Part shown: in pieces, positions 2,722 through 62,163 of the stretch | Layout: each line of letters starts with the position of its first letter | Numbering within the stretch: position 1 is the stretch's first letter | DNA from: Escherichia coli | GTDB lineage: Bacteria; Pseudomonadota; Gammaproteobacteria; Enterobacterales; Enterobacteriaceae | DNA: 64,000 nucleotides | Assembly (NCBI RefSeq): GCF_009931435.1 | Contig: NZ_CP043414.1 | Direction: 5' to 3' (one strand) | Notes under the pieces: model-generated | Told to the model about the DNA's origin: nothing | The model's input: the letters and a program-made list of their open reading frames with translations, nothing else | The model's database searches: none | Position numbers and translations under genes: made by a program

Positions 2722-2770
2722 AGATAATCCTCTTTGAAAACGACCATCATCTATAGTTCAATTCATCGAT

Positions 2771-2953: not shown

Positions 2954-2973
2954 ACATTTATTTATAACGCGTT

Positions 2974-4666: not shown

Positions 4667-5226
4667 GAGGTGAAATGATGCAATTCAATAGCATGAAGAT
4701 TACTCAAAAATGGTGGGATGCGATGAAAGCTAACCACCAGAACGATATTAATTAAGTAACATTTTAGATATACAGCACCCAGCTAACAGATCACCTTTTA
4801 TGGATTTCATTATAACCCCTTTGATCTGGAAACTATGTTAATTAGTTGATTTCTAAGCCTTGTCCTTGTGATGGGGCTTTTTATTGCAAAATTTTTAGTT
4901 ATTTTGGGTTGACTACATTCGGGTTGCCAATTCGCCTGGCTAACTCTTGCTGAGTGATTTCTGACTGTAAAAAAGCATTTAACAGCAATACCTTAGAGGC
5001 GACGCTCAAAGGCACTTCAATAAAGTGATCGTGACTATTTAATGGCGAAGTTTACCTCCGTGTGTAATGTGCTCGAAAATAGCACTAAATCGCCGCAACG
5101 GCAGAATGCAATGCAAAATCAGGAAGGAAGATTCCAGAATTTCTTTGCGCTAATTTGCAAAACTGAATAATAACCTCAAGAAACGATCGGCATCATAGCG
5201 GCAAAAGGTCAGAAAAAGGTGGCGGG

Positions 5227-5457
5227 ATGTTTTCGAAGGCGTTATCGGTTGTCTTATTAACGTGTGCACTGTTCTCAGGACAACTCATGGCAGGGCACAA
5301 AGGACATGAATTTATGTGGGTAAAGAATGTGGATCATCAGCTGCGTCATGAAGCGGACAGCGATGAATTGCGTGCCGTGGCGGAAGAGTCGGCGGAAGGT
5401 TTGCGCGAGCATTTTTACTGGCAAAAATCGCGCAAACCAGAAGCAGGACAGCATTGA
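5227..5457 (+). CDS. yncJ: Small secreted protein YncJ
   Basis: 76-aa ORF MFSKALSVVLLTCALFSGQLMAGHKGHEF...WQKSRKPEAGQH, near-identical to E. coli YncJ as recalled. Confidence 0.9.
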   Translation: MFSKALSVVLLTCALFSGQLMAGHKGHEFMWVKNVDHQLRHEADSDELRAVAEESAEGLREHFYWQKSRKPEAGQH

Positions 5458-5467
5458 GTCGTATGAT

Positions 5468-5497
5468 GCCGGATGCGGCGTGACGCCTTACCCGGCC
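5468..5497. repeat. REP (repetitive extragenic palindromic) element
   Basis: GCCGGATGCGGCGTGACGCCTTACCCGGCC between convergent yncJ and ydcP. Confidence 0.6.
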
Positions 5498-5548
5498 AAC
5501 AAGATCATGCAGACTCAATGAGCTGAGAATAACCTGAAAACCTGCGTT

Positions 5549-7552: not shown

Positions 7553-7582
7553 AAGCGCGACGTTGCGAAATAGTTTTCCCGC

Positions 7583-8119
7583 TTAACTGCGTGGGTAATG
7601 GATGAGGGAATGAAAATGTACGATTTGCTCCCCACCATTACGATAGACATGCGTAACGTCTGCAGCAAATCGAGCGCCTTCTCCACAATTAAGGCTCTGC
7701 CATTCACCATCAACGCACAGATCAAGTTGCCCATCAATGACGACAACATGTTCGATTACTCCCTTCTCATGGGGCGTCGATTCACTTATTGCACCGGGAG
7801 CCATCTGAATTGAGAAGTGTTCAAAGCAGAGTTGCGGATCATAAGGAAACAGCGAAGTGATCACCATCGCCTGCTGTTGCGGATCATAAACTGAAGGCGT
7901 AGCGGACTGCGGCGGAGAAATAAATGTCGAAAATGGCACATTCAACCCGGTGGCAATTTTCCATAATGTCGCGACCGTCGGGCTGGACTCATTACGCTCA
8001 ATCTGCCCTAACATCGCTTTAGAAACCCCCGTCGCTTCTGCCAGTCGCGAAAGACTCCAGCCGCGCTGCTGACGCAGATGTTTAAGTGTAGTGGATAAAA
8101 AGCGAGTGAGATTTTCCAT
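7583..8119 (-). CDS. sutR: HTH-XRE plus cupin transcriptional regulator SutR (YdcN)
   Basis: 178-aa ORF with N-terminal XRE HTH (LRQQRGWSLSRLAEATGVSKAMLGQIERNESSPTVATLWKIATGL) and C-terminal cupin. Confidence 0.9.
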   Translation of the reverse strand: MENLTRFLSTTLKHLRQQRGWSLSRLAEATGVSKAMLGQIERNESSPTVATLWKIATGLNVPFSTFISPPQSATPSVYDPQQQAMVITSLFPYDPQLCFEHFSIQMAPGAISESTPHEKGVIEHVVVIDGQLDLCVDGEWQSLNCGEGARFAADVTHVYRNGGEQIVHFHSLIHYPRS

Positions 8120-8210
8120 GTGACTCCTCCGGCAAAGCGGAAGTTTATCACTTGTGCGTTATAACGGACAAATGCTACGGTACCTGTACGCTATAACGCA
8201 CGAGGTGACC

Positions 8211-9383
8211 ATGCGTCTGTTTTCTATTCCTCCACCCACGCTACTGGCGGGGTTTCTGGCGGTATTAATTGGCTACGCCAGTTCAGCGGCAATAATCTGG
8301 CAAGCAGCGATTGTCGCCGGAGCCACCACTGCACAAATCTCTGGCTGGATGACGGCGCTGGGGCTGGCAATGGGCGTCAGTACGCTGGCTCTGACATTAT
8401 GGTATCGCGTACCTGTTCTCACCGCATGGTCAACGCCTGGCGCGGCTTTGTTGGTCACCGGATTACAGGGACTAACACTTAACGAAGCCATCGGCGTTTT
8501 TATTGTCACCAACGCGTTAATAGTCCTCTGCGGCATAACGGGACTCTTTGCTCGTCTGATGCGCATTATTCCGCACTCGCTTGCGGCGGCAATGCTTGCC
8601 GGGATTTTATTACGCTTTGGTTTACAGGCGTTTGCCAGTCTGGATGGTCAGTTTACGTTATGCGGTAGTATGTTGCTGGCGTGGCTGGCGACAAAAACTT
8701 ATGCGCCGCGTTATGCGGTAATTGCGGCGATGATAGTTGGCATCGTAATCGTTATTTTACAAGGTGACGTTGTCACAGGGGATATTGCCTTTAAACCCGT
8801 TCTCCCCGCTTATATTGCCCCTGAATTTTCGTTTGCTCACAGTCTGAGCGTTGCACTCCCCCTTTTTCTGGTGACGATGGCATCGCAAAACGCACCGGGT
8901 ATTGCGGCAATGAAAGCGGCCGGGTATTCGGCTCCTGTTTCGCCGTTGATTGTATTTACTGGATTGCTGGCGCTGGTATTTTCCCCTTTCGGGGTTTATT
9001 CCGTTGGTATTGCAGCAATCACCGCGGCTATTTGCCAAAGCCCGGAAGCGCATCCGGATAAAGATCAACGTTGGCTGGCAGCTGCCGTCGCAGGCGTTGT
9101 TTATTTGTTTGCAGGTCTGTTTGGTAGCGCCATAACTGGAATGATGGCCGCGCTGCCCGTGAGTTGGATCCAGATGCTGGCAGGTCTGGCGCTGTTGAGT
9201 ACCATTGGCGGCAGTTTGTATCAGGCGCTGCATAATGAGCGTGAGCGAGACGCGGCGGTGGTGGCATTTCTGGTAACGGCAAGTGGATTGACGCTGGTCG
9301 GGATTGGTTCTGCGTTCTGGGGATTAATTGCCGGAGGCGTTTGTTACGTGGTGTTGAATTTAATCGCTGACAGAAACCGATAA
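8211..9383 (+). CDS. ydcO: BenE-family inner-membrane transporter YdcO
   Basis: Polytopic membrane ORF; start placed at the ATG at 8211 (GAGGTG Shine-Dalgarno just upstream) rather than the listed 8154. Confidence 0.85.
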   Translation: MRLFSIPPPTLLAGFLAVLIGYASSAAIIWQAAIVAGATTAQISGWMTALGLAMGVSTLALTLWYRVPVLTAWSTPGAALLVTGLQGLTLNEAIGVFIVTNALIVLCGITGLFARLMRIIPHSLAAAMLAGILLRFGLQAFASLDGQFTLCGSMLLAWLATKTYAPRYAVIAAMIVGIVIVILQGDVVTGDIAFKPVLPAYIAPEFSFAHSLSVALPLFLVTMASQNAPGIAAMKAAGYSAPVSPLIVFTGLLALVFSPFGVYSVGIAAITAAICQSPEAHPDKDQRWLAAAVAGVVYLFAGLFGSAITGMMAALPVSWIQMLAGLALLSTIGGSLYQALHNERERDAAVVAFLVTASGLTLVGIGSAFWGLIAGGVCYVVLNLIADRNR

Positions 9384-20139: not shown

Positions 20140-20368
20140 CGACTAAAAACCTCTTTGCGTCACATTTTTACAACAATTATTGCAGAGAAGATTAATGCCA
20201 TTGGATTGAAGAAAGTGAGGAATGGTTAAACTGGCTAACCCGAATGACGAAAAATTCTGGAAAACAGCACGCAATTTCGTCAGGTGATTATTTTCGTCCC
20301 TAAGGAAACCACATAGGATGCTCACGGGTGCCTGAGACTTTCTGTTTTCAGGCTAACCGGGAATCAGA

Positions 20369-20413
20369 AAGACGAAGGCCCCGACCGATATTTCTATCAA
20401 CCGAGGCCAACGA

Positions 20414-20424
<11 letters not shown>
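20369..20424 (-). ncRNA. sokB: sokB antisense RNA of the hokB/mokB type I toxin-antitoxin locus (approximate coordinates)
   Basis: Placed from the conserved hok/sok architecture (antisense overlapping the mok start); boundaries not supported by clear promoter or terminator signals. Confidence 0.35.
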
Positions 20425-20621
<197 letters not shown>

Positions 20622-20866: not shown

Positions 20867-21110
20867 ATAACCTCCATGATTTATCGAATCTTATGTTCGA
20901 TTTGAACGTTATACGCTGGTTTATTTTGATACCGTTGATGAGATCAAAGATCGGGTGAATTGATTAAAGATAAGCCAGATGGACATATGGACAAGGATTA
21001 TGGTTTTATTTGTCATACAAATAAATATAATAGGCGCTTCCGATGTAGGCCCGTATTCTTCGCCTGTACCACGGGTCGGTTTTAGTACAGGCGTTTTCTT
21101 TAAATATCCT

Positions 21111-25580: not shown

Positions 25581-28500
25581 TTAACCGCTAATCTGCTCCA
25601 TCGCCTGCAAAATACGCTTATCTGAAATCGGATAAGGCGTACCAAGTTGTTGAGCGAAGTAACTAACGCGCAACTCTTCTATCATCCAACGGATCTCTTT
25701 CACGTCTTCATCCTCACGACGTGCAGGCGGCAGTTTGTTGATCCACTGCAGCCACGCCTGCTGGACGTTTTCAACTTTCAGCATCTGAGCACGGTCACGG
25801 TGCGGATCAACCGCCAGTTTTTCCAGACGTTTTTCAATCGCCTGTAAATAACGCAGCGTGTCGCCCAGCCGTTTAAAACCGTTGCCAGTGACAAAACCGC
25901 GATACACCAGCCCGCCCATCTGCGCTTTAATGTCAGAAAGCCCCAGCGCCATAGTCATATCCACCCGCCCTTTCAGGCGTTTGTTGATATTGAACACCGC
26001 TGTGAGGATTTGCTCGACCTGCTTCGCAATATCCACCACCGTGTCGTTCAGTTCAGCGCGCACTTTTTCATGAAGCGCAGCAAAGCCTTCTTCCGTCCAG
26101 ACCGGGCCACCATTGGCGTCGATCAGTTGATCCACACCGCAGGAGATACAGTCGTCTATCAGCTCCAGCACTTTGCCATACGGGTTAAAGTACAGCCCAA
26201 GTTTGGCTTTGTTTGGCAACTTCTCATGCAAATATTTGATTGGCGACGGAATATTCAGCAGCAGTAAACGGCGAAGACCGTTCCACATTGCCTGCTTTTG
26301 CTCCAGCGGGTTATCAAACAGTTTGATCGCCACGCTGTCGCGCTCATCCACCAACGCTGGCCACGCCTTCACTTTGTAGTTGCCACGCTTCTGTTCGTAG
26401 CTTTCCGGCAGTTGCCCAAAACTCCAGATATGTAACCCGCTTTGCTCAATACCATCATCGGCAACGGCGGAAAGCGTTTCCTGCACTTTGCCTTTCAGGG
26501 CGTCTTTCAGATCCTGTAATGAGCGCCCTTCTTTTAGCTTCTTATTTTTGTCATCCACCACACGGAAGGTGATTTTCAGGTGATCGGGCACCTGATCCCA
26601 GTGCCAGTCTTCGCGGTCAACGGTAACGCCGGTCATCCGCCGTAGCTCGCGCTCAAGGCTGTCGAGCAACGGCAGTTCCAGCGGCGTGACGCGACCTAAA
26701 AACGCTTCGGCGTAGTTTGGCGCGGGCACAAAATTACGCCGTACCGGTTTCGGCAACGATTTGATTAGAGCAATCACCAGTTCACGGCGCAGGCCGGGGA
26801 TCTGCCACTCAAACCCGCTTTCCTCAACCTGGTTAAGTAACGGCAGCGGAATATGCACGGTCACACCGTCAGCATCCGCCCCCGGCTCAAACTGATAGCT
26901 TAAACGCAGCTTGAGATTGCCCTGATGCCAGAAGTTCGGGTAATCCAGCTTGCTGATTTTTTCCGCCCCTTCTTTGATCAACATGCTCTTTTCAAAGTTG
27001 AGCAAATCAGGTGTTTCGCGGCTGACTTTTTTCCACCAACTATCAAAGTGTCGTGCAGAGATCACATCATGGCTGATGCGCTGGTCGTAGAACTCAAACA
27101 ACGTTTCGTCATCCACCAGAATATCGCGGCGACGTGATTTGTGTTCCAGTTCTTCCACTTCTGCCCGTAGTTTCAGGTTTTCACGGAAGAATGCGTGACG
27201 CGTCTGCCAGTCACCTTCCACCAGCGCGTGGCGAATAAAAAGTTCACGACACAACGCCGGATCAATCTGGCTGTAGTTGACCTTACGCGCAGCAACAATC
27301 GGCAACCCGTAAACGGTGACTTTTTCAGTTGCCATCACCGCGCCCTGCGCCCGTTCCCAGTGCGGTTCGCTGTAGGAGCGTTTAATCAAATGCTGAGCAA
27401 CTGGCTCCACCCATTCTGGATCGATGCGTGCCGCAATGCGCCCCCACAGGCGGCTGGTTTCTACCAGTTCCGCCACCATTGCCCATTTCGGCGGCTTCTT
27501 GAATAAACCAGAACCGGGGAAGATGGAGAAACGCGCGTTACGTGCGCCGGTATATTCCTGTTTATCGGCATCTTTCATGCCGATATGCGAAAGCAAACCT
27601 GTCAGTAAGGCGATGTGAATTTCGCGATACTCCGCCGGTTCGCTGTTAACCGGAATGCCAAGTTCTTTCACCACCTGGCGCAACTGGGTGTAGATATCCT
27701 GCCATTCGCGCACGCGCAGATAGTTAAGGTAATCGGTACGGCACAGGCGACGGAAGGCGTTTGAAGAGAGCGCCTTTTGCTGCTCGCCGAGATAATTCCA
27801 CAGATTTACAAACGCCAGGAAGTCGGATTCTTTATCGTGAAAGCGACGATGTTTTTCGTCCGATGCCTGCTGCTTGTCCATTGGCCGCTCACGCGGGTCC
27901 TGAATAGAGAGCGCGGAAGTGATAATCATCGCCTCACGCACGCAGCCATGTTTCTGCGCTTCCAGCACCATTCGCGCCAGACGAGGATCGACTGGCAGTT
28001 GCGAGAGCTGGCGACCGAGCGGCGTCAGTTTATAGGCGCTGGCCTGTTCATCAGTGGTGATCGCGCCCAGCTCTTCGAGCAGACGCACGCCATCCTGGAT
28101 ATTGCGTTTATCCGGCGCTTCTACAAACGGGAACGCAGCGATATCGCCCAGCCCCAGCGCGGTCATCTGCAAAATAACCGAGGCCAGGTTGGTACGCAGA
28201 ATCTCCGGATCGGTAAACTCCGGGCGCGAGAGGAAATCGTCTTCGGAATAAAGACGAATGCAGATCCCTTCTGACACACGACCACAGCGGCCTTTACGCT
28301 GATTAGCTGAAGCCTGCGAAATGGGCTCAATCGGCAGACGCTGCACTTTGGTGCGATAGCTGTAGCGGCTGATACGCGCCGTACCTGGGTCGATAACGTA
28401 TTTAATCCCCGGCACAGTCAGCGAGGTTTCCGCGACGTTAGTCGCCAGCACAATGCGCCGTCCGCTGTGCGACTGGAAGACGCGGTTCTGCTCGCTGTTC

Positions 28501-29483
28501 GAAAGCCGTGCATAAAGCGGAAGAATTTCCGTATGGCGTAAGTTCAGCTTGTTCAGCGCATCGGCGGTATCGCGAATTTCTCGCTCGCCGCTCATAAAAA
28601 TCAGAATGTCGCCAGGGCTTTCCTGACTCAGTTCGTCTACGGCGTCAAAAATCGCCTGCAACTGGTCGCGCTCGGTGTCATCAGCTTCTTCAACAATCGG
28701 GCGATAGCGCACCTCCACCGGATAGGTACGACCGGAGACTTCGATAATCGGCGCATTATTAAAGTGGCGCGAAAAGCGTTCCGGGTCGATAGTCGCGGAA
28801 GTGATAATGATTTTTAGGTCAGGACGCCGCGGCAGTAACTCTTTCAAATAACCGAGGAGAAAATCGATATTCAGGCTACGTTCGTGCGCTTCGTCAATAA
28901 TGATAGTGTCGTACTGCATCAGCAGGCGGTCTTGCTGGATCTCTGCCAGCAGGATACCGTCGGTCATCAGCTTGACCATCGTGTTATCACTGACGTGATC
29001 GCTGAAACGCACTTTATACCCGATGCAACCGCCCGGCTCCGTTTGCAGCTCTTCCGCAATACGGTTCGCCACCGTTCGTGCCGCCAGACGACGCGGCTGG
29101 GTATGGCCGATCAGCCCTTTAATCCCGCGGCCCAGTTCCATACAGATTTTCGGTAACTGAGTCGTTTTACCGGAACCCGTTTCCCCGGCGACGATCACCA
29201 CCTGGTGATCACGGATTGCTTCGAGAATGTCCTGCTTTTTCTGACTAACCGGCAAATTGTCCGGATAAGTGATTTCCGGTCGTGCTGCTTCACGCAGCAG
29301 GACTTTCCCTGCCGCCTGGTCAATCTCTTTCGCCATCTCCTGGAAAATGGCCTGTTGTGCATCAGGATTTTTAACCTTCTTCACACCATGCAGACGGCGG
29401 GAAAAACGCAGTCTGTCACGCAGCATCAGCGAATCCAACCGTTGCTGCAAGGCCGTAAAGGTCAATTTTTGTTGTTCTGTCAT
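25581..29483 (-). CDS. hrpA: ATP-dependent RNA helicase HrpA (DEAH-box)
   Basis: 1300-aa ORF with GETGSGKTTQ Walker A and DEAH motifs. Confidence 0.95.
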   Translation of the reverse strand: MTEQQKLTFTALQQRLDSLMLRDRLRFSRRLHGVKKVKNPDAQQAIFQEMAKEIDQAAGKVLLREAARPEITYPDNLPVSQKKQDILEAIRDHQVVIVAGETGSGKTTQLPKICMELGRGIKGLIGHTQPRRLAARTVANRIAEELQTEPGGCIGYKVRFSDHVSDNTMVKLMTDGILLAEIQQDRLLMQYDTIIIDEAHERSLNIDFLLGYLKELLPRRPDLKIIITSATIDPERFSRHFNNAPIIEVSGRTYPVEVRYRPIVEEADDTERDQLQAIFDAVDELSQESPGDILIFMSGEREIRDTADALNKLNLRHTEILPLYARLSNSEQNRVFQSHSGRRIVLATNVAETSLTVPGIKYVIDPGTARISRYSYRTKVQRLPIEPISQASANQRKGRCGRVSEGICIRLYSEDDFLSRPEFTDPEILRTNLASVILQMTALGLGDIAAFPFVEAPDKRNIQDGVRLLEELGAITTDEQASAYKLTPLGRQLSQLPVDPRLARMVLEAQKHGCVREAMIITSALSIQDPRERPMDKQQASDEKHRRFHDKESDFLAFVNLWNYLGEQQKALSSNAFRRLCRTDYLNYLRVREWQDIYTQLRQVVKELGIPVNSEPAEYREIHIALLTGLLSHIGMKDADKQEYTGARNARFSIFPGSGLFKKPPKWAMVAELVETSRLWGRIAARIDPEWVEPVAQHLIKRSYSEPHWERAQGAVMATEKVTVYGLPIVAARKVNYSQIDPALCRELFIRHALVEGDWQTRHAFFRENLKLRAEVEELEHKSRRRDILVDDETLFEFYDQRISHDVISARHFDSWWKKVSRETPDLLNFEKSMLIKEGAEKISKLDYPNFWHQGNLKLRLSYQFEPGADADGVTVHIPLPLLNQVEESGFEWQIPGLRRELVIALIKSLPKPVRRNFVPAPNYAEAFLGRVTPLELPLLDSLERELRRMTGVTVDREDWHWDQVPDHLKITFRVVDDKNKKLKEGRSLQDLKDALKGKVQETLSAVADDGIEQSGLHIWSFGQLPESYEQKRGNYKVKAWPALVDERDSVAIKLFDNPLEQKQAMWNGLRRLLLLNIPSPIKYLHEKLPNKAKLGLYFNPYGKVLELIDDCISCGVDQLIDANGGPVWTEEGFAALHEKVRAELNDTVVDIAKQVEQILTAVFNINKRLKGRVDMTMALGLSDIKAQMGGLVYRGFVTGNGFKRLGDTLRYLQAIEKRLEKLAVDPHRDRAQMLKVENVQQAWLQWINKLPPARREDEDVKEIRWMIEELRVSYFAQQLGTPYPISDKRILQAMEQISG

Positions 29484-37463: not shown

Positions 37464-38324
37464 TTATTCTCGCGAAATACCATCCAACGTAGACAACACG
37501 TCCGCAGAAAGATGCAATTTTTCAGCAGCCATATTCTCCCGTAAATGCGCAACAGAAGATGTTCCAGGAATCAACAAAATATTCGGTGAACGTTGTAACA
37601 GCCACGCCAGCGCTACCTGCATTGGTGTCGCATTAAGGCTCGCAGCAACATCGGAAAGCGTGGAGGATTGCAGCGGCGTAAAGCCCCCGAGCGGGAAGAA
37701 CGGCACGTAGGCAATGCCGTCACGAGCCAAAGCATCAATCATTGCGTCATCAGCACGATGAGCAATGTTGTATTCGTTCTGCACGCAGACGATTTCGGCA
37801 ATCTTGCGTGCCTCTGCAACCTGCGTCGGTGTGACGTTGCTCAGGCCAATATGTTTTACCAGGCCTTGTTGTCGCATCTCTGCCAGCACGGTCAGGCTGG
37901 CTTCAATCGATCCTTCCGCTGGGCCATGACCATCCCCCATCATAACGCGCAGGTTGACCACATCCAGTACGTCCAGTCCGAGATTACGTAGATTATCGTG
38001 TACCGCTTTTTGCAACTCTGCCGGAGAAAATGCGGGCAACCAGGAGGCGTCCTCTCCACGCCGCGCCCCAATTTTAGTAACAATGGTCAGGTCGTCAGAG
38101 TAAGGATAAAGCGCTTCGCGGATAATCTGATTGGTGACGTGTGGACCATAAAAGTCACTGGTATCAATGTGATTAACGCCTAATGCCAGCGCCTCGCGCA
38201 GCACGGTTATAGCGACGTGGCGATCCCTTGGGGGACCAAAAACTCCAGGACCTGCCAGTTGCATCGCGCCATAACCAAGACGGTTAACGGATTTTGTACC
38301 GAGAGTAAATGTGTTGCTGCTCAT
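37464..38324 (-). CDS. ydbC: Aldo-keto reductase YdbC (PdxI, pyridoxine 4-dehydrogenase)
   Basis: 286-aa AKR-family ORF. Confidence 0.9.
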   Translation of the reverse strand: MSSNTFTLGTKSVNRLGYGAMQLAGPGVFGPPRDRHVAITVLREALALGVNHIDTSDFYGPHVTNQIIREALYPYSDDLTIVTKIGARRGEDASWLPAFSPAELQKAVHDNLRNLGLDVLDVVNLRVMMGDGHGPAEGSIEASLTVLAEMRQQGLVKHIGLSNVTPTQVAEARKIAEIVCVQNEYNIAHRADDAMIDALARDGIAYVPFFPLGGFTPLQSSTLSDVAASLNATPMQVALAWLLQRSPNILLIPGTSSVAHLRENMAAEKLHLSADVLSTLDGISRE

Positions 38325-38478
38325 CGCACCCTGCCCTGTAATAAAACGGATTAAGAAAAATCAGTATAGAAACGAAAAGAGTTAAATAATGCGAAGGCGT
38401 AAACAAGATTACTGGATGAGTTGCTCTATTGTCCTGAAAAACACCAAAACAAAACGCGTCAAGCGCCGCATCCGGCAA

Positions 38479-38531: not shown

Positions 38532-41500
38532 TTAGAACGTTTTCTTGAAGTTCAGCATCACGCCTTTATCGCTGATACCATCCTCTTTCCAGTGGTAAGC
38601 ATCCAGATTCAGCGAACTTTCTTTGCTGCTGTACTTCACGCCGACGCTTGCCAGACTGTTGATGCCGCCGCCCTTCTGCCCATCATCGACATTAAAGTGC
38701 TGGCTGCCTGCGCCTGCCAGGCTTGCCGTGCGCTGGCTCTTGCTGTAGCTGAGGTTCGGCCCACCTTCCAGCGTGGCGTTCGCACTCCAGCCGTCTTTCC
38801 CTGCGTAGTCCAGCTTCAGCCCGACGATGCTGTCCACCGCCGTTTCGCTGCCGCTGTTCATGCTCAGGTTAAAGTCTCCGGCATTGCGCTCCTGATAGTC
38901 GCCTTCCAGCGTGTGACGCAGTTTCACACCCGCATATGGCGTGATTTTCAGCCCTTCGCGCGGTTCAAAGGTTTTCGCCCCTTCGCTGCGGAACTCCAGG
39001 TACTGTTGTTTCACATTCGTGTCTGCCGTCTTACTGATGTCGCCGTAAGCCACCGAACGGCTGCTGTCCAGTTGGTGAATATCGTAGCGCAGCGCGTTAT
39101 TCCAGCTCATACCGTTGTCAAAGGACATCTGATGCTTCAGGCCAAAGAACTGGCTGTAGCCGCCTGTAACACCATTATCACCCGCTTTCTGCGCACCATC
39201 GCCGTCCAGACGGGCGATACCGTACTCCAGGCTCATGGTCTGGTTTTCGCTCAGGTCGAGGGTTTTGCGCAGCGCCAGCATGTCGTACTCGGTATTATTC
39301 CCCAGCTCTGCACGCGGATCGCCTTTCGCCACCACGTTAAATGCCAGACCGTTGCCCATCTTCGGTGCTGCGTCTGCCAGCATACTAAAGCGATTGCTTA
39401 ACACACGCGCTTCGCGGAATACCGTGGTCGCCTGGCTACCGCTAATTTGCTTAAGTGCGCTGTTCAGCTCTGCAGTGGTGCCGACGTTCAGACTGGTATA
39501 CAGCTCATTGTTGGTGTAACCCGCATCCAGCGCTTTTGCCACGTCATTCACTGAGGCATCCGTCGCCACATCGGTGTAGGCTTTTTTGCTCATGGTCACG
39601 TCAACGTTGCCGCTGGCGTCGGTACTGCCTGTCGCCTGCCAGACAACAGATGTCGAAGTGATCGCTTGCGCATCGGTCAGGTTGCTGCCTTGCACCACAT
39701 CATCAAAGCTGGCGGTTTTGTCCGCCGTTCCCGCCGCAAAAGCAGTGTTGATCTCCACGCCTTTCATACTGGCGTTATTGACCATCAGCTTACCAGCGCT
39801 ACCATCGGCGTTCGTCCCCACCACGTAACCATTGAGGTTGTTCATGCCATCGTTGCGGCTAACGGAAGAAGAATGACTGTCGTCGTATGGCGTAATGGTG
39901 GGTTCTTCCGGCGCGGTAAAGTCGACATAGTGTACTTCCGTACCGTCTCCCCCTTCACCACTGCCCTCCATCACCGTGCCAGATTGTTTAATTAATCCGG
40001 AACCATTCACGCTGTCGTCAATATAAACAGTGCCGTTGTTAACAATATGACCATTGCTCCCGAGCTTGCTGAAGGCATATGAATTGCTGGCATATATATT
40101 GATGGTGCCGTTATTCTCAATCACCGCATCAGCCGTGGCATCGGATTCCAGTTGCATCCCTACCATGCCTGTCCTGGTAGTTCCTTGCGTGCCAACGTTA
40201 ATGGTGCCGTTGTTGATCATTTTGGCTTTACCGTGCGCCGACATCGCCACATTACTATTTTTGTCGATATTAATAATGCCGTCGTTTATTGCCTTGCTGG
40301 CCGTGTTTGATGTCAGGATCTGCCCGTTGATGAAGCCAGACTGGCCATTATAGAACGTATGCCCATCACCACCGGTGCTAATTCTCATGTCACCTTCTAC
40401 TGTCCCCCAATTATTAAAATGTCCTGTCCACAGCGCATTCGTCGCCACCGTTGCCACACTGCCTTCCAGATTGTTGAAGGTGCCACCTTTATCAACCGAT
40501 GCATTATTTACGGTACCAGCATTATTAAAGGTAGAGGCTGCAGCAAAAGTTATTTTCTCTACTTTTCCACCGGCCTGATTATTCATTACGGCAGACCCGG
40601 AAGAACCTTTCCAGGCGTTCACCGTTCCGGTGTTATAAAAATTGCTGGCCCACTGGTCAACCGTGTTGATGCTGCCTGAGTTGTGAATAACCGATCCTGC
40701 AACAGTCGTTCCGACTTGCCCGCTCACCGTACCTTCGTTAGTGAACACGCCGCCATCCACAGAAACAGTTTTTGTCGTGCCGTGGTTGGTGTATTCCCCA
40801 CCGGTTGCGATATCAACCTCAATAATACTGCCCGTGGTTTCATTGACCAGATGACCAAAGTCAGCCACGGTGACAGGTCCCCCGGTGACCGTACCCGTGT
40901 TTGTTACCAGGGTTTCGGCGGTTGCCGTGATATCAGTAGTACCGCCATATGAATACAGGTTAAGCGTTTCCCCGTCAGCCGAAATAATGTCACCATTTCT
41001 CCAGCTTAATGAAACAAACCCGTCAGTCGGGTTATAGGCGTTATTGTCCTGGCATTTCCCAAAAGTACAGATGGATCCGTAATTAACGATAGTCCCGCTG
41101 CCATCGTTATAGAACGCCTGCCCGTTTTCAGCATTAATATTGATGATGCCCGTCTGATCATTAATCGCAGTGGCACCATTGTAAACAGCCATGCCGACCA
41201 ATTTATTTGGCCCCAGCGTATCATCATCATTTTCATTTACTTCCAGATTTATAGTTCCCTGGTTAATAATAATGTTACCTGGCTTCATCGCAGCCATACC
41301 GGCACCGGAATTATAGAGTGTTATTTCACCACCCTGCTGGTTAATGGCGGTAGAATTAACGCTGGCACCAGAACTGTCTGTACCCACAGCCATCCCGACA
41401 GCATAATCTTTGGCGCTGTCATGAGCGATATTGGACGCCAGACTGGAAGTATCGTTTTCATCAACCCATAATGCGTCAATGAAAATCTTACCCATATTGT

Positions 41501-44024
41501 CAATGGTTGAATTATTGGAGGCCAGCATGCCAACACTCCCCCGGCCGTACATTTGGATCTCACCGGCAGTATTATTTAAAGCGGTGCCATTGTTGCCTGC
41601 CGTCATCCCCGTCAGACTAATGACTTGATTATTAAAAATTAAAGGGTCACTCAAACCTTGAGCGTTCAGACTATTGAAAATACGTCCCTGCGCGAGTACC
41701 TTACTGGTGATGGCACTGTTATTAACAACTCGACCACCATAGACGCTCAAATACGCAGAACTAGCAGAGTCTGATGTATTCCCCTCTACGCCGTAGATAG
41801 AAATCGTTACGTTGTTATTATTTACAGCTAGCGACTCTTCACCAGTAGCCCTGGCAAAGCCAATATTACCCAGTTCTACATCACCATTATTTATCATCTG
41901 CGAACCGGAATTCACCAGTACAACCTGTGATGTGTCACTATTATAATGTTCAAATGTATTTATATCTTTTAGGATAAAAGTGGCGTTGCGGCCAAGTTCT
42001 AAATGGGCTCGGTTATTCAGTTGAATGATATCGCCTAATCCAAGCGGAAAAACACCACTGATTGTTGAATCCCCATTTAGATACAGAGTAGAGTGCCCAT
42101 CGATTTTGATAACAGGCGTATCGCCATAACCATTACGTTTTAAAGCAGGTGTGGAGCCATCCTGTAGAGTATTTTCTTCGCCAGCTAAATGGATACCACC
42201 ATTAATTTCGACGGTATTACCGTCACCCGACACAACCAGACCATTAATATTTTCCTGGCTGCCATCCATTTCATTATAGATACGAGAAGTGACTTCACTG
42301 TCAGCAACAACGGTAAGATTGCCATTTAATACGATATTATTGTCGTGTCCCTGCACCTGAATGCCAACAGAAGGGGTAAAAAAGTCATTTATTGAATGCT
42401 CTCCGGCCTGATTTTTATCCACCAGAATATTACCGGTAATTTCAACTTCATTGCCATCACCGGCTACATTTACCCCTGTCGCAACACTGCCGGTCACATT
42501 AAGCTCATTTGTCGCCAGCGTCATGGCGTTATTATTTCCAGAGACATCCAGACCGGTTGAATAATCCCCTACATCCACACGGCCAGCCAGAGAAATCAGA
42601 CCATCATCTCCGATGATGCGAATCCCGGTACTGAAATTATCAGCAATGATGTCCCCCACATTGATAAGGGTAGAATGATTACCCTCAATCAGAATCCCTG
42701 TCGCATTGGCCTCTGAACTACCATTACTGACGGATATATCCCCCCTGTTAATGAACGTCGACGCATCACCACTGAGAGAAACACCCTGCGAATTTTCATC
42801 CACGACCGTTATATTTCCTTTGTTGCTGACGATCGCGCCATTACCCTCAACATCAATACCCCGTGCAGCATTGCTAACGTATAAATCCCCTTCCTGTATA
42901 ACCGTCGCATTATTACCAACGATTTTGCTGCCCGTTGAATTTTGCCCATCAACCGTCATATGTCCTTTATTATCGGTCCTGACATCATTACCGCTAATAA
43001 CGGCCCCTATTCCGCCGTTATTGACAGTGGAGTCGCCAGTGTTATTTAAGATTGTACGATCGCCATTGACGATAACCGCCGTGCCAGCATCGACCACCGT
43101 CTGACCGTTATTATTGATGGTTATATTATCGCCGGTCAGGATACCGACCACCGAACCTTCACCGACAGCCTCTGTTTTACCCTCGTTTGTCAGCGCAATG
43201 TTGTTACCATTAATCATCATCACCGTGCCGCCATTCAGGGCCGTGTTACCGCCCTGGTCAGTGATAATCGCATCATTAACGGTAATTATTCTGTCCGTTG
43301 TTCCATCAGACACGACACTGGCTAACTGTGTGACGTGGAGTTTACCTTCGTCATCGTAGCGCCATTCCATATCACCTGTGGTACTCACACCACTAAACAT
43401 GGCGGTATGAGTCTCTTCATGGTTTTCCCACTCAGTCACAATGGTTTTTCGGCCATCTTTTGCCGTCAGCGTGTAGCTACCATCTTCATTTTGGGTATAA
43501 GTGAACGTCGCCCCGCGAATCTTCAGGGTTTGCGCGTCCTTGTCCCATGTCACATTGTTATCAAAGACAACGGGTTCTGTTCTCGGGGGGTCAACATCAT
43601 CACCGCTATTGTCGGGTGGAGTAACATTACCGCCGTTATCTGGCTTTACAGGTATACCTGAATCTTCATCACTGGGAACGGGTAGCGGTAGAGGGCCATT
43701 ATCATCTGGCGGTATGGGCTGGGGAAAAGAAGAGTGAGCAGAATGATCATTGTCATGAGACAATTCAATCACTGCGAGTGTTGCCAGTACCGCCGTGGCA
43801 CCTAATGCCAGTAACGAGCTGAAACCATTATTTGTAACAACAGCACATTTTTCTGGCACTGTTTTCAACTTCGTTGACGGTCGGGCGTGCCCTTCTGACT
43901 GACATGTCATTTGAGAGCTTCTGCGCATACTGTCTGCACTCTCGCCTTCTGTTATTTCCGCCCCCCAGCTTTGGCCACTTAACGCTATAGCGATACACGC
44001 TGATAATAACGTTTTCTTTTGCAT
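38532..44024 (-). CDS. ydbA: Giant autotransporter adhesin YdbA, uninterrupted 1830-aa frame
   Basis: Signal peptide, long degenerate beta-helical passenger repeats (N-x-G-x-I/V motifs) and C-terminal beta-barrel translocator ending ...MLNFKKTF. Confidence 0.9.
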   Translation of the reverse strand: MQKKTLLSACIAIALSGQSWGAEITEGESADSMRRSSQMTCQSEGHARPSTKLKTVPEKCAVVTNNGFSSLLALGATAVLATLAVIELSHDNDHSAHSSFPQPIPPDDNGPLPLPVPSDEDSGIPVKPDNGGNVTPPDNSGDDVDPPRTEPVVFDNNVTWDKDAQTLKIRGATFTYTQNEDGSYTLTAKDGRKTIVTEWENHEETHTAMFSGVSTTGDMEWRYDDEGKLHVTQLASVVSDGTTDRIITVNDAIITDQGGNTALNGGTVMMINGNNIALTNEGKTEAVGEGSVVGILTGDNITINNNGQTVVDAGTAVIVNGDRTILNNTGDSTVNNGGIGAVISGNDVRTDNKGHMTVDGQNSTGSKIVGNNATVIQEGDLYVSNAARGIDVEGNGAIVSNKGNITVVDENSQGVSLSGDASTFINRGDISVSNGSSEANATGILIEGNHSTLINVGDIIADNFSTGIRIIGDDGLISLAGRVDVGDYSTGLDVSGNNNAMTLATNELNVTGSVATGVNVAGDGNEVEITGNILVDKNQAGEHSINDFFTPSVGIQVQGHDNNIVLNGNLTVVADSEVTSRIYNEMDGSQENINGLVVSGDGNTVEINGGIHLAGEENTLQDGSTPALKRNGYGDTPVIKIDGHSTLYLNGDSTISGVFPLGLGDIIQLNNRAHLELGRNATFILKDINTFEHYNSDTSQVVLVNSGSQMINNGDVELGNIGFARATGEESLAVNNNNVTISIYGVEGNTSDSASSAYLSVYGGRVVNNSAITSKVLAQGRIFNSLNAQGLSDPLIFNNQVISLTGMTAGNNGTALNNTAGEIQMYGRGSVGMLASNNSTIDNMGKIFIDALWVDENDTSSLASNIAHDSAKDYAVGMAVGTDSSGASVNSTAINQQGGEITLYNSGAGMAAMKPGNIIINQGTINLEVNENDDDTLGPNKLVGMAVYNGATAINDQTGIININAENGQAFYNDGSGTIVNYGSICTFGKCQDNNAYNPTDGFVSLSWRNGDIISADGETLNLYSYGGTTDITATAETLVTNTGTVTGGPVTVADFGHLVNETTGSIIEVDIATGGEYTNHGTTKTVSVDGGVFTNEGTVSGQVGTTVAGSVIHNSGSINTVDQWASNFYNTGTVNAWKGSSGSAVMNNQAGGKVEKITFAAASTFNNAGTVNNASVDKGGTFNNLEGSVATVATNALWTGHFNNWGTVEGDMRISTGGDGHTFYNGQSGFINGQILTSNTASKAINDGIINIDKNSNVAMSAHGKAKMINNGTINVGTQGTTRTGMVGMQLESDATADAVIENNGTINIYASNSYAFSKLGSNGHIVNNGTVYIDDSVNGSGLIKQSGTVMEGSGEGGDGTEVHYVDFTAPEEPTITPYDDSHSSSVSRNDGMNNLNGYVVGTNADGSAGKLMVNNASMKGVEINTAFAAGTADKTASFDDVVQGSNLTDAQAITSTSVVWQATGSTDASGNVDVTMSKKAYTDVATDASVNDVAKALDAGYTNNELYTSLNVGTTAELNSALKQISGSQATTVFREARVLSNRFSMLADAAPKMGNGLAFNVVAKGDPRAELGNNTEYDMLALRKTLDLSENQTMSLEYGIARLDGDGAQKAGDNGVTGGYSQFFGLKHQMSFDNGMSWNNALRYDIHQLDSSRSVAYGDISKTADTNVKQQYLEFRSEGAKTFEPREGLKITPYAGVKLRHTLEGDYQERNAGDFNLSMNSGSETAVDSIVGLKLDYAGKDGWSANATLEGGPNLSYSKSQRTASLAGAGSQHFNVDDGQKGGGINSLASVGVKYSSKESSLNLDAYHWKEDGISDKGVMLNFKKTF

Positions 44025-44670
44025 GAGAAATCCTTTTCAATGAATGACATTTCAAATAATAAAATATGAGTAATAGATAAGAAATAGCCACAGGCTGTGT
44101 CATGATTTAATGCCTGCTCTTGAAATTTTATTTAGCAATCCCAGAACATTCAACTTAATTAGTATTTCGAAACCTCAATGTAGACACATAAAAAACAAAT
44201 TATTCGATTACTTAGGCTATTTGTTGCATTAATACACATCCTCTAACAATAATCAGACAAAAAGCAATGTCAGCGTCAAATTGGGTAGCTGATTCATATT
44301 ACTGACCACTCCGGAAATTCATTCATCGTGAAAATATTAACATTTCAACCATGTTCCATTTAATCAACCCACTGAAAATCTGGAGGTTATCTACTGCGGT
44401 TTGTTGTTGACTGCCCCTGACAGGTTTACCAGGCGTTGACAGAAGATGAGGCTTGCAAGATGCTAAAAACAATGTGGTGTTACAAGCAATCCCATAAACC
44501 TCGTAACTTCACTTAAATGAGCGATGCCGTCCATATTTGGGTTGACTATAAAAACCCTTAATATTGAGGTTGATGATGATATTCATGATGGCATTGGAAA
44601 AATAGGACACCCATAAAATATCTATACAGCCTTTAAATTAAATCATTGAAATATCGCTGTTGCATAGTGC

Positions 44671-44997
44671 TTATTTTTGCAACCATTTCCCGTTAATTCC
44701 CTGCACATATTCCCCCGGTTTGGCCCGAGCTACAAGCTTTTGTCCGGCAAGCTTCGCGATATCATCTACCGATACATTATTTTGCTTTGCCAGTTGTTGA
44801 TAACTCACTTTACGTGCGGCATTAATCTCGGTTACTAATTTCTCTGTTTCAGCATCCGTTTTCAACGCAACCAAATAACCGTTAAATGTTTCACCTACCC
44901 GCCCCTGAATTCTGGCCTCGTCCAGTGTTAATGCCACTACATTGCTGCTTACCAGTCCAACAAGAAACGCACAAAGAAGTAATGTTTTCTTCATCAT
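44671..44997 (-). CDS. ydbL: Periplasmic protein YdbL (DUF1318)
   Basis: Start set at MMKKTLLLCAFLVGLVSS (signal peptide); the listed ORF extends 26 codons upstream into ynbE. Confidence 0.85.
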   Translation of the reverse strand: MMKKTLLLCAFLVGLVSSNVVALTLDEARIQGRVGETFNGYLVALKTDAETEKLVTEINAARKVSYQQLAKQNNVSVDDIAKLAGQKLVARAKPGEYVQGINGKWLQK

Positions 44998-45001
44998 CCC
45001 C

Positions 45002-45187
45002 TCAGAAAAGATCGCTACGGGTTTTGAGTAAATCTTCGACATCTTTGTCTGCCTTAATGATGATCTCATGCTCAATTTTAACGTTCATATTGATAGTGAT
45101 CGGTTCCTTAGGTGCAGCGACTTCAATGCGAGGCGTACAGCCAACCAGCATAAAAGATGACGTCAACGCAGCCAGTAAAATTTTCAT
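45002..45187 (-). CDS. ynbE: Lipoprotein YnbE
   Basis: 61-aa ORF MKILLAALTSSFMLVGCTPRIE... with lipobox; 4-nt overlap with ydbH. Confidence 0.9.
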   Translation of the reverse strand: MKILLAALTSSFMLVGCTPRIEVAAPKEPITINMNVKIEHEIIIKADKDVEDLLKTRSDLF

Positions 45188-47823
45188 TGTTTTTCCTCAC
45201 ACCCTTTTCCTTGCGGACAGCCATTTTCCGGCAGACGCGCGTTCTGCTCCAACCATGCCTGGAGATTATCGCCAAAGCGTAAACTGCGCCACAGGGTAAA
45301 AATATTCTCTTCATGATGGTAATTAAGGTTTACCGTACCACTTTTACCGTCGACGCGACTGGTACCTGTAATATTGGCCTGCATGGTTAACACACCAAGA
45401 TTATCTAAATTAATTTTTGTCGATGAACGGCTAATTTCCATATAGCGCAACCAGTTAATCGCTGAACCCGCAGTCATATTGTCTTTCACCACCGCATCTG
45501 CGGTGTCTTTATCCAGCCGCAAAGTCATTGGTCCGCTATTTGCCAGCCAGCCGTCTTTAACTATCCATTTTTCATTGTTCAGCCATAAAGGCAATGCCCC
45601 ACTAAATGCCCCGGACATGGCGAATTGTTTCGGATTGACGGCGCTAACCAGTTCGCTGGATGAGAGATTATTCAGCCGCAACAGCGCCGGGTCATGTTGC
45701 GGCATGCGTAATTGTTTCATCAGCACGTTACCGCCTAACACATCGACGCTAACATCGGTCAACAACAATGGTTCGTCTTCACTCCACGGATAACGCCCTT
45801 GCAAGTCAGCCGTAATATTTTTCGCTGTCACCAGATTAATCACTTCGGCAATTCGCAACGTAACGGGGCCGCGAGTCCCCAGATGCCAGGCTCCATCGGC
45901 AAAACGGAAAGGCAGGACAAAATCGACACCGTTGACCTGATTATCTGGCATCCAGGCACTACCGCCTTTCAACACACCGTGCCCTCCCGCGCGGAATCCT
46001 TGTTCAGGCGCAGCAGAAAATGCAACCTGGGCATACAGCTCGCCATCGCGTAAGTTCATCTTCCAGTCGGGTGGCACCAACGGTTGAAACACAGTCAACG
46101 ATTGCTTAGGCCACCAGGCGTTACCGCGCAGGCGAATGCCGTCCCAGCGTCCATTTACCTGCACCGGCCCAATCTCACCAGCATGTAAATCCCCTTTGAA
46201 GAGGAAATATGTCGGATCGCGTCCATCGACACTAAATTTTAAGGTTGATGGCGGTAACACACTGCCACCCGTGAACAGCGTTTGCCCGGCGTCCAGTGAC
46301 AGCGCGCCGCTGAACGAAGGATTCTGCACATCACGTACCCAGACGACGGGCTTGTCGAGAATCAATCGCGGCTTTTCTACCGTCATTGTCCCGTATTGCA
46401 ATTTGTCAAAGCCGGTTGAGAGATCGGTCAGCGTAATCGTGCTGTCATGCCACTCACCTTTTCCTGCGACATCCCAGGTGGCATTCATCGGTGTAAAACT
46501 CCCTTTTCCCCAGTAGCGCCACTGCCAGCGGCCAGCGTCAGGGAGAAAATCATTCGCCAGCCCATCCATATGCAGTACGAAATCGCCCAGTTCATTTTCA
46601 TGCGCCTGCAAAATGGCCTGCAAACGTCCGTCAACACCACGTTGGGTGACTTTTACACCCGCTAAAGGCCAGCGGATTTCATCAATATCCAGCGAATCGA
46701 TGACTCTTCCCTTCGAACGTAATAACGCGCCTGGCTCAAAGGCCAGCGTTGGGTCAGTCAGACTTCCGCTTAGCTGCGCAGGTAAACGGGCATATAAAAT
46801 GAGGTCCGCCTGTTTCGCTTCACCGGTCAGTTGCATAGGCAGCTGGCTGTTATCCATGCTTAATTTTCCTGGGCCAAAATTAAGCACCGCGTTGCCCTTA
46901 CCCGCTTGCCCCTGGGTCAGCACACTCAGTCGTCCGCTGACCAGAGCATTCTCAAGCCCTGCCTGCCAGTTGTCGACTTTGACACCCAGTCGTCCACTCA
47001 AAGGAAAACCTGCATACGGCCAGCTCCAGCGACCATCGCTTACGGTCAATTGTTGGCGAGTAATTTGCCACGGCAGATCGAGCAACGGATCGCCGTTATC
47101 CCGTGCCAGCACAATCAATTGCCCGCTATTTTCCTGCCAGTCCAGCTCGGCATCCACCAGTGAAGGCTCCTGCGGCAAGTTTAACGTCGCAGTAGCATGA
47201 CCACTTACAGGAAGTCCATCCGGCACTAGCGGCATAGTAAATTCCCCCACCAGTTTAACTGGCGGCTGATTTTCAAACGCGACGACATCCAGTTCGCTGA
47301 CTGTAAGTTGTTGCCCTTTCAGCTGGCCTTGAAATTTAACTTTTTCGCCCTGATAACGCAGTTGCTGGATATCGGAGTTTAATGCGAGAGAGAGTTTTCC
47401 CTGCCATTCCTGCCAGGGAGAAAAAATCAGTTTATCGATATTGATCCAGGTGTTAGGCAACATGGCCTGCCACTGCGCGAGGGTTTTCGGAGCGGCTGGC
47501 GATTGCTCCGTCTGCGGCAATTTCGCCAGACAAGCAGAATCAAGTTCTACCGTGCCGACGTTCAATAACCAGCGGCTGGGATGAGAAAGGCTGGCGTTTG
47601 TGATATGTGCAAGCTGACAATCTCCTACCAGATAACGGAGATCGGGAATGATTAAACCTTTACGCGTAATGCGTGGGCTTTCATCTAAAGCAATACGTGT
47701 GCCGAGCGGTAGCCAGATGCCCGCCAGCGTGGGAACCCACAACCCGAGCGTCATCAGTAGCGTCAACGGCACAAGAATAATCAGTAATAGCAGCGCGAGA
47801 ACGGCTTTATATTTACCCAACAT
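45184..47823 (-). CDS. ydbH: AsmA-like large protein YdbH
   Basis: 879-aa ORF with N-terminal TM anchor; operon ydbH-ynbE-ydbL. Confidence 0.9.
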   Translation of the reverse strand: MLGKYKAVLALLLLIILVPLTLLMTLGLWVPTLAGIWLPLGTRIALDESPRITRKGLIIPDLRYLVGDCQLAHITNASLSHPSRWLLNVGTVELDSACLAKLPQTEQSPAAPKTLAQWQAMLPNTWINIDKLIFSPWQEWQGKLSLALNSDIQQLRYQGEKVKFQGQLKGQQLTVSELDVVAFENQPPVKLVGEFTMPLVPDGLPVSGHATATLNLPQEPSLVDAELDWQENSGQLIVLARDNGDPLLDLPWQITRQQLTVSDGRWSWPYAGFPLSGRLGVKVDNWQAGLENALVSGRLSVLTQGQAGKGNAVLNFGPGKLSMDNSQLPMQLTGEAKQADLILYARLPAQLSGSLTDPTLAFEPGALLRSKGRVIDSLDIDEIRWPLAGVKVTQRGVDGRLQAILQAHENELGDFVLHMDGLANDFLPDAGRWQWRYWGKGSFTPMNATWDVAGKGEWHDSTITLTDLSTGFDKLQYGTMTVEKPRLILDKPVVWVRDVQNPSFSGALSLDAGQTLFTGGSVLPPSTLKFSVDGRDPTYFLFKGDLHAGEIGPVQVNGRWDGIRLRGNAWWPKQSLTVFQPLVPPDWKMNLRDGELYAQVAFSAAPEQGFRAGGHGVLKGGSAWMPDNQVNGVDFVLPFRFADGAWHLGTRGPVTLRIAEVINLVTAKNITADLQGRYPWSEDEPLLLTDVSVDVLGGNVLMKQLRMPQHDPALLRLNNLSSSELVSAVNPKQFAMSGAFSGALPLWLNNEKWIVKDGWLANSGPMTLRLDKDTADAVVKDNMTAGSAINWLRYMEISRSSTKINLDNLGVLTMQANITGTSRVDGKSGTVNLNYHHEENIFTLWRSLRFGDNLQAWLEQNARLPENGCPQGKGCEEKQ

Positions 47824-53614: not shown

Positions 53615-53642
53615 ATGCTCTGGATAAGGATTATCCAATTCT

Positions 53643-53752
53643 AAAAAAAAGCCCGGACGACTGTTCGGGCTTGTCTTTTTATATGTTGGAAAATCAGTGG
53701 CAATGCAATGGCCCAACAGAAAATAAAATCTGTGACAATAAAGGCATATAAC
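53643..53752 (-). ncRNA. micC: MicC small RNA (Hfq-dependent regulator of ompC), divergent from ompN
   Basis: Minus-strand sequence GTTATATGCCTTTATTGTCACAGATTTTATTTTCTGTTGGGCC...GCCCGAACAGTCGTCCGGGCTTTTTTT matches MicC as recalled; its terminator hairpin also follows the ydbK stop. Confidence 0.9.
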
Positions 53753-53979
53753 TCGCGCAGAATAACGTATAGCAAATTAAAAGTATAATTTTTATTTTGT
53801 ATGTATTATCTTCGATACATTCACCAGACTTATTATCATTTCAGAGGAATTATTTGATTAAGGTTTTACTTAAGGCGTAACAAATGATATTTATCGGCTA
53901 ACTGAACTTCTCCTTTAGGATGTTTTCATTCCCCGAAATGGGGATAAAAGGCAAATAAAATAACTAAAGGATTTATTCA

Positions 53980-58562: not shown

Positions 58563-58684
58563 AAAAAAAAGCCGACTCATCAAAGTCGGCGTCGTACGAA
58601 TCAATTGTGCTATGCAGTAATTCAAAAAAGGAAGTAAGACAATATGGAGCGCAACGCCCATCGCTTGACGTTGCATTCACCTGC
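58563..58684 (-). ncRNA. fnrS: FnrS small RNA (FNR-activated, Hfq-dependent)
   Basis: Minus-strand GCAGGTGAATGCAACGTCAAGCGATGGGCGTTGCGCTCC...GCCGACTTTGATGAGTCGGCTTTTTTTT matches FnrS as recalled. Confidence 0.9.
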
Positions 58685-62061: not shown

Positions 62062-62155
62062 ACCGGCGCAGAGGAGACCATGCCGGATTTAAGACGCGGA
62101 TGCACTGCTGTGTGTACTGTAGAGTCTGGCGGATGTCGACAGACTCTATTTTTTT
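62062..62155 (+). ncRNA. mcaS: McaS (IsrA) small RNA
   Basis: ACCGGCGCAGAGGAGACCATGCCGGATTTAAGACGCGGATGCACTGCTGTGTGTACTGTAGAGTCTGGCGGATGTCGACAGACTCTATTTTTTT in the abgR-smrA intergenic region matches McaS as recalled, including the terminator hairpin. Confidence 0.85.
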
Positions 62156-62163
62156 ATGCAGTT

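Follow-up and report, generated by a model that had tools for sequence, protein, structure and literature searches.

The ydbA gene in the window

The window analysed here is a 64,000-nucleotide (nt) stretch of the Escherichia coli contig NZ_CP043414.1, and our subject is its ydbA gene, which the open reading frame (ORF) listing gives as a single ORF of 1830 amino acids (aa) at 38532..44024 with an ATG start. The earlier note on this DNA had the coordinates and the codon count exactly right and left the strand unstated; it is the minus strand. The translation holds no internal stop across its 1830 codons, and by our own arithmetic a random frame of that length would stay free of stops with a chance of about (61/64)^1830, or ~1e-38, so the frame is not a product of chance. 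The ATG at 44022-44024 is the earliest start codon past the upstream in-frame stop. Taken as a whole, the evidence below makes it very probable that the window carries an intact allele of ydbA, an accessory gene in E. coli, that this allele is maintained by selection and that it codes for a BigA/YdbA-family autotransporter of type Va. The features of the gene, drawn partly from AlphaFold2 models scored by the predicted local distance difference test (pLDDT), are as follows.

44025..44675, minus strand: ydbL-ydbA intergenic region, 651 nt, AT-rich (~35-40% GC), the presumed promoter region
44031..44035, minus strand: putative Shine-Dalgarno-like AAGGA, 6 nt 5' of the ydbA ATG, read by eye
38532..44024, minus strand: ydbA coding sequence, 1830 codons and a TAA stop at 38532-38534
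43959..44024, minus strand: Sec-type signal peptide, aa 1-22, by inspection; kept by all alleles; AlphaFold2 helix at aa 2-16
43824..43958, minus strand: hydrophilic stretch with invariant Cys41 and Cys60, aa 23-67, from the allele alignment; a family-wide pattern
43761..43823, minus strand: second hydrophobic, Ala/Gly-rich segment, aa 68-88, by Kyte-Doolittle hydropathy; conserved in the family
aa 89-99, minus strand: His-rich patch
43581..43727, minus strand: Pro-rich linker, aa 100-148, ~4 degenerate decapeptide copies (a perfect array of 3-17 copies in other alleles)
43329..43571, minus strand: BigA_N beta domain PF25784, aa 152-232, 92.1 bits, E 2.5e-26; AlphaFold2 pLDDT ~82
39855..43289, minus strand: beta-helical passenger rich in Gly, Asn, Thr and Ser, aa ~246-1390, from the AlphaFold2 model of aa 250-575 and from composition
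41052-41069, minus strand: CTFGxC motif, aa 986-991, with C986 and C991 in a mini-loop inside the conserved passenger island described below
39579..39830, minus strand: BigA_beta sandwich PF25783, aa 1399-1482, 86.1 bits, E 1.4e-24; AlphaFold2 strands at aa 1395-1480, pLDDT ~95
39372..39578, minus strand: helical bundle, aa 1483-1551, with a long terminal helix (aa 1534-1551) before the barrel, from AlphaFold2
38541..39347, minus strand: 12-strand outer-membrane beta-barrel translocator, aa 1560-1828, from PF03797, AlphaFold2 and Foldseek
38452..38473, minus strand: terminator-like stem-loop and T-run, 59 nt 3' of the ydbA stop, a candidate from a consensus scan in which the number of such sites was not above the shuffled expectation

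Domain architecture and predicted structure

By inspection, the YdbA N-terminus is signal-peptide-like (MQKKTLLSACIAIALSGQSWG↓AE), with the n-region MQKK, a 13-residue hydrophobic core and the cleavage-type motif SWG↓AE. A lipoprotein reading of 'LLSAC' (aa 6-10) was rejected, by inspection and general knowledge, since the 9 residues ahead of the Cys are too few for that type of signal peptide. At the other end, the C-terminal 399 aa scanned alone matched PF03797 (Autotransporter) over aa 1603-1801 with 68.3 bits (cut-off 26) and an E-value of 1.1e-18. The same family was unreported when the whole 1830-aa protein was scanned against Pfam, which is a filter artefact, since the C-terminus alone scores 68 bits; in full-length scans a barrel can go unseen behind a long passenger of low complexity, a caveat of the method that applies here to window positions 38532-39731. 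The protein ends in ...VMLNFKKTF and thus carries the C-terminal aromatic residue (Phe) of a beta-signal.

Two AlphaFold2 models were built, one of aa 1-640 from 8 aligned alleles and one of aa 1380-1830 from 22 diverse homologues. The C-terminal model (mean pLDDT 91.5, predicted template modelling score 0.82) comprises a sandwich, helices and 12 barrel strands, and Foldseek matched it to the translocators of AaaA, EstA, EspP and NalP with E-values of 5.5e-10 to 4.5e-7 and a probability of 1.00. The N-terminal model has a pLDDT below 50 over aa 1-148 and shows a regular pattern of three strands per rung over aa 250-575, with a pLDDT of 90-98 over ~aa 290-530. Against the Protein Data Bank (PDB), Foldseek matched the passenger model to parallel beta-helix proteins exclusively (Ag43, EspC, TibA, tailspikes), matches that may be read as support for the fold class only. 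A PDB sequence search found no sequence relative, and what it did return, the beta-helix repeats of T4 gp5 at E 0.016 or worse, matched by chance.

The ORF listing, AlphaFold2, PF03797 and Foldseek thus agree on the continuous frame with signal peptide, beta-helical passenger and C-terminal barrel that had been proposed from the letters alone. The window gene encodes a classical autotransporter (type Va) that belongs to the BigA/YdbA family and has all parts present: a signal peptide, a beta-helical passenger, a helical linker with a 12-strand barrel and a terminal Phe make it type Va, while BigA_N ahead of the helix and BigA_beta ahead of the barrel place it in the family. By analogy with the structures of NalP and EspP, the helix at aa 1534-1551 would plug the barrel pore.

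Relation to known autotransporters

With Salmonella enterica BigA the window protein shares BigA_N, the beta-helix, BigA_beta and a barrel of the NalP group, and the BigA profile NF033178 (auto_BigA) of NCBIfam aligns over profile positions 510-1874. The score of 972.6 bits lies below the curated cut-off of 3400, which makes YdbA homologous to BigA without being BigA proper; in the best-scoring of three stretches, the first 500 positions of the profile go unmatched. A published description of BigA gives it an AIDA-I-like passenger and a barrel of group 6 (PMC3419190).

The self-associating proteins Ag43, AIDA-I and TibA are likewise type Va autotransporters with a right-handed beta-helix passenger. 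Foldseek placed Ag43 and TibA among its highest-ranking matches to the passenger model, but without significance (E-values of 4e-3 or above, TM-score 0.1-0.45), and the window protein is without the AIDA-type Pfam repeats. To our knowledge, BigA_N, BigA_beta and the hydrophobic and Pro-rich N-terminal module are not features of Ag43, AIDA-I or TibA. By Foldseek, the window barrel is nearer to those of NalP, EspP and EstA than to that of AIDA-I. NalP, EspP, EstA and AaaA share the 12-strand barrel with its preceding helix (TM-score normalised to NalP 0.67-0.72), but they are only 13-17% identical in sequence and carry unrelated passengers (protease, esterase, aminopeptidase).

Locus and comparison with K-12

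In the window, ydbA follows hrpA (25581-29483), azoR, ynbDCBA, ydbD and pdxI/ydbC (286 aa, 37464-38324), and beyond it lie ydbL, ynbE, ydbH (45184-47823), ldhA and a pyruvate:ferredoxin oxidoreductase gene (1174 aa). The K-12 gene (b1401/b1405) occupies the same slot upstream of pdxI(ydbC)-ydbD-ynbABCD-azoR-hrpA and has the same domain order. In MG1655 this slot holds an 842-aa fragment annotated as 'beta strand repeat-containing', the insertion sequences (IS) IS2 and IS30, and a 1166-aa fragment annotated as 'autotransporter domain-containing', with paaY before them, so that the split of K-12 ydbA by IS2 and IS30, as stated in the earlier note, is seen in the genome. The alignment to the K-12 fragments proposed there was run: the window protein is collinear with both over its full length, and 62% of residues are identical in aa 716-1830 and 37-42% in aa 1-698. 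The shared downstream neighbours together with this collinearity establish the loci as orthologous. The C-terminal 440 aa are 85-96% identical between the two alleles. K-12 ydbA differs from the window allele in the IS2/IS30 split, in an N-terminal half of the passenger that is only 37-42% identical and in a 294-nt tandem repeat of 3.2 copies that the window allele is without.

K-12 ydbA adjoins paaY, whereas the window gene adjoins ydbL; the paa/tynA/fea (feaRB) cluster is absent from the window, and ydbA therefore abuts ydbL. The same neighbour was found in several other strains, and the arrangement fits the published heterogeneity of the region around ydbA (PMC4951805). Over a 10.4-kb flank, identity is 95-99% to every one of the 5419 E. 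coli genomes that match, at best 98.6%, and an origin of the window in an Escherichia other than E. coli was rejected on these grounds.

Elsewhere in the window, five small RNAs matched Rfam at gathering score. They are the expected K-12-like set and are unrelated to ydbA; the MicC match adjoins a 377-aa ompN-like ORF.

53635-53755: MicC
58567-58684: FnrS
62062-62157: McaS
21037-21100: RydC
20326-20477: sok antitoxin RNA (hok/sok-type locus)

Allele class and mosaicism

The allele class of the window gene was found in 17 of 5426 complete E. coli genomes at a coverage of at least 80%, with a best identity of 98.6%. The 651-nt ydbL-ydbA intergenic region also has megablast matches in 17 of the 5426, and the twelve strains listed for it all fall within the 17 of the allele class; the region goes with this haplotype specifically. 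Most genomes match just the last 24% of the window gene, at ~86%.

Comparison in blocks of 100 aa showed that the cluster representative P0001 is 97-100% identical to the window protein except at aa ~1000-1300 (67-93%), and P0002 is 92-100% identical except at aa ~500-1000 (41-81%). The window passenger thus contains mosaic blocks at aa ~500-900 and ~1000-1300, and GC within the gene ranges from 43% in its middle to 56% at the 3' end. The block pattern and the GC range suggest that segmental recombination between ydbA allele classes may have shaped the passenger. Its aa ~860-1000 form a conserved island with 71-81% identity to most other allele classes and 47-81% across all aligned. This island with the CTFGxC motif, the sole conserved one of an otherwise highly variable passenger, is possibly a functional or folding core.

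The earlier reading would have been undermined had the frame lacked a large segment present in other full-length alleles. Compared with its own class (1832, 1834 and 1845 aa), the window allele has no gap as long as 10 aa. Against longer alleles the protein is shorter by up to ~1000 aa, the difference lying between window aa 232 and 443, and this gap is due to tandem amplification in those alleles and not to deletion of a unique segment from this one.

Repeats and length variation

The passenger repeats had been put forward in the earlier note as a possible substrate for repeat-number variation. This does not hold for the window allele: Tandem Repeats Finder (minimum score 30) returned one 36-nt chance match and no DNA tandem repeat, and the longest direct repeats in a seed-based search were 22-23 nt at 74-78% identity. 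The passenger rungs are repetitive at the level of the fold only. The ~4 decapeptides of the linker are degenerate at the DNA level, and the helix consists of single copies.

The repeat analysis across strains called for in that note was also run, and variation in repeat number, absent from the window allele, was found in other ydbA alleles. In common alleles the N-terminal linker is built from a 30-nt unit (PVPPDDGGDT) present in 6.6-14.8 copies in the sampled genomes and in 3 to 17 copies in database proteins, and its copy number spaces protein lengths 10 aa apart, in a ladder that runs between 1861 and 1961 aa. Strain ES5 carries such an array at 2762-3112 of its extracted locus, and arrays were found at four more loci (L004, L005, L009, L014). 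A second, 147-nt unit (49 aa, two rungs) lies directly after BigA_N as 294- or 441-nt repeats in 2.5-11 copies that are 90-95% identical. Repeats based on it occur in K-12-type alleles and in longer alleles of 2360-2867 aa, and their amplification gives YdbA lengths up to 2867 aa; the 3.2 copies of K-12 lie in fragment 1 (5355-6308 of the extracted locus), and further arrays were found at loci L007, L010, L011, L012 and L015. All repeat units of the family are multiples of 3, so that their effect is on protein length and not on whether the gene is on or off.

These arrays, with their 10-aa ladder and their closely similar 147/294/441-nt units, would favour the idea that ydbA is a contingency locus, in which slippage or unequal recombination between passenger repeats alters the length of the window allele at high frequency. 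We consider this a most improbable account of the window allele, given its single chance match, its short and diverged direct repeats, its degenerate linker decapeptides, close relatives that differ in length by just 0-15 aa, and repeat units that leave the frame open. The window allele is a rare, short, mosaic haplotype without the tandem DNA repeats that vary the length of other alleles.

The N-terminal module

The segment at aa 68-88 is the most hydrophobic stretch in YdbA, with a Kyte-Doolittle mean over 19 residues of 2.12 versus 1.24 for the signal peptide. In the alignment, the signal peptide, the Cys pair, the hydrophobic segment and the Pro-rich repeat are kept by every allele from E. 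coli and E. albertii, and the last three are kept in most full-length representatives of the wider BigA/YdbA family. The YdbA N-terminus gave no match to the extended signal peptide region (ESPR, PF13018) even at E <=10. In P0159, a distant relative within the family, the signal peptide is a complete ESPR (PF13018, 54.4 bits), and the Cys pair, the hydrophobic helix and the Pro-rich linker are still there ahead of BigA_N. The presence in one protein of an ESPR and a later hydrophobic helix argues that the helix belongs to the mature protein and not to a bipartite signal peptide.

Two other readings of the segment were considered and set aside. One long bipartite (ESPR-like) signal peptide is weakened by the missing ESPR match and by the layout of P0159, and an internal start that would make aa 68-88 the signal peptide is at odds with most alleles, in which M13 is the last Met ahead of the segment.

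No description of the N-terminal module of BigA/YdbA autotransporters was found in the papers searchable here. The shared module of signal peptide, Cys...Cys loop, Ala/Gly-rich helix, His/Gly patch and variable Pro-rich linker could point to an unusual topology or export and to ydbA as a tunable, hypervariable surface-antigen locus, a speculation that we regard as unlikely. Were it so, the N-terminus might be membrane-tethered or membrane-interacting with a length-tunable Pro-rich spacer, and ydbA would vary in three independent modes, i.e., the 30-nt array, the 147-nt-based array and the mosaic blocks.

Distribution, integrity and selection

The conserved C-terminal 1.3 kb of ydbA was detected in 3097 of the 5426 complete genomes (~57%), sensitive blastn included, which leaves ~43% of complete E. 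coli genomes without ydbA. The frames were checked in 12 carriers taken at even steps down the similarity ranking. Nine were intact, with lengths of 1673, 1969, 1984, 2026, 2093, 2360, 2575, 2838 and 2867 aa, and three were disrupted, namely O157:H7 N8B7-2 by a nonsense mutation in codon 1011, KE58 by a stop inside the frame and AF200 by IS3 in the 5' end. Full-length YdbA homologues number hundreds in the protein database, and the C-terminal module is common to just 136 cluster representatives among 1.84 billion proteins, by which the BigA/YdbA family is coherent and small. It is already published that ydbA is broken in K-12 and full-length in many strains: the gene has been reported as a pseudogene in MG1655 and as full length in ~42% of phylogroup A (PMC4951805). 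The novelty that the earlier note implied for an intact ydbA thus has to be given up, as full-length alleles are common and the exact protein is already in NCBI.

Two annotation errors were met on the way. Strain ES5 has an uninterrupted 1951-codon ydbA frame (2456-8311 of the extracted locus) annotated as two 'partial' pseudogenes, and several intact YdbA proteins are labelled 'EntS/YbdA MFS transporter', apparently through a mix-up of the names ydbA and ybdA. Automated (RefSeq) annotation of this locus, which splits intact genes and misnames their products, is unreliable.

The nearest allele from a complete genome (R32_14_1F, of equal length) differs from the window gene by 72 synonymous and 36 non-synonymous substitutions. 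The ratio of non-synonymous to synonymous rates (dN/dS) is 0.15 for the gene as a whole and 0.08 for the barrel region, and the whole-gene value indicates purifying selection on ydbA. The identical protein occurs on 14 public contigs (NCBI accessions, e.g., EMD6623266.1).

An open frame could still hide a pseudogene, its protein made non-functional by lost passenger segments or disabling substitutions. At 1830 aa the window allele lies near the short end of the intact ones, with one sampled allele shorter and the others reaching 2867 aa, and ydbA decays frequently, as the insertions in K-12 and AF200 and the stops in N8B7-2 and KE58 show, and is missing from many genomes altogether. On the other hand, every domain of the family is present and confidently folded in the models, alleles of the same class are equal in length within 15 aa, the additional length elsewhere comes from tandem amplification, dN/dS is low and lower still in the barrel, and the same protein recurs across contigs. 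We therefore judge a disguised pseudogene to be very unlikely. The full set of domains and the dN/dS against the closest allele bear out the description of the gene as potentially functional, with an adhesin role as the inferred part of that claim.

Expression and function

If the reading as an intact, maintained autotransporter is right, the Sec signal peptide would carry the YdbA precursor into the periplasm and the barrel assembly machinery (BAM) would insert the C-terminal 12-strand barrel into the outer membrane. The beta-helical passenger of ~1150 residues, capped by BigA_N and followed by BigA_beta, would then be threaded out and fold on the surface, where it would most likely remain attached as an adhesin or aggregation factor. 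We think that the protein is probably made and displayed under some natural condition. A role in adhesion or aggregation is a tentative proposal, somewhat short of an even chance.

Several points weigh against the reading of ydbA as a maintained surface autotransporter. The AlphaFold2 evidence for the helix covers aa 250-575 of a passenger of aa ~246-1390, and the Foldseek matches of the passenger model to known beta-helix adhesins are weak (best E 4e-3, TM-score 0.1-0.25). Simple Sec export is hard to square with a strongly hydrophobic segment (aa 68-88) that follows the signal peptide. The promoter scan upstream of ydbA gave 12 matches versus 13.3 expected from shuffled sequence, and as this count is no better than shuffled, no promoter is claimed. 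AT-rich upstream regions are typical of H-NS-silenced E. coli genes. No report of a function for E. coli YdbA was found in the searchable literature, so export and adhesion are deduced from family membership, and Salmonella BigA appears in the searched literature only as a listed adhesin gene or candidate.

Some of these points also fit a gene that is intact but cryptic, i.e., transcriptionally silenced, for example by H-NS, and contributing nothing under most conditions, as would be the case for the majority of the non-fimbrial adhesin genes in E. coli and in Salmonella. The 650 nt upstream at 35-40% GC and the promoter-like count at shuffled level point this way. So does the poor transcription of the K-12 ydbA fragments unless the RNA polymerase is altered, as in an rpoZ mutant (PMC5811629), and a Salmonella preprint describes the inducing conditions as unknown for most adhesins (PMC13228587). 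However, with dN/dS at 0.15 the coding sequence is under selection and must be expressed somewhere, and nine of the 12 sampled carriers hold a frame of 1673-2867 codons open. We regard silencing under most conditions as a real possibility that falls a little below even odds; it overlaps with our preferred explanation, an intact and selectively maintained allele, and concerns expression only.

Implications

Our results indicate that ydbA is better viewed as an accessory, highly polymorphic surface-protein locus and not simply as a K-12 pseudogene. The mechanistic question that ydbA raises for its family is that of the hydrophobic and Pro-rich module found family-wide at the N-terminus.

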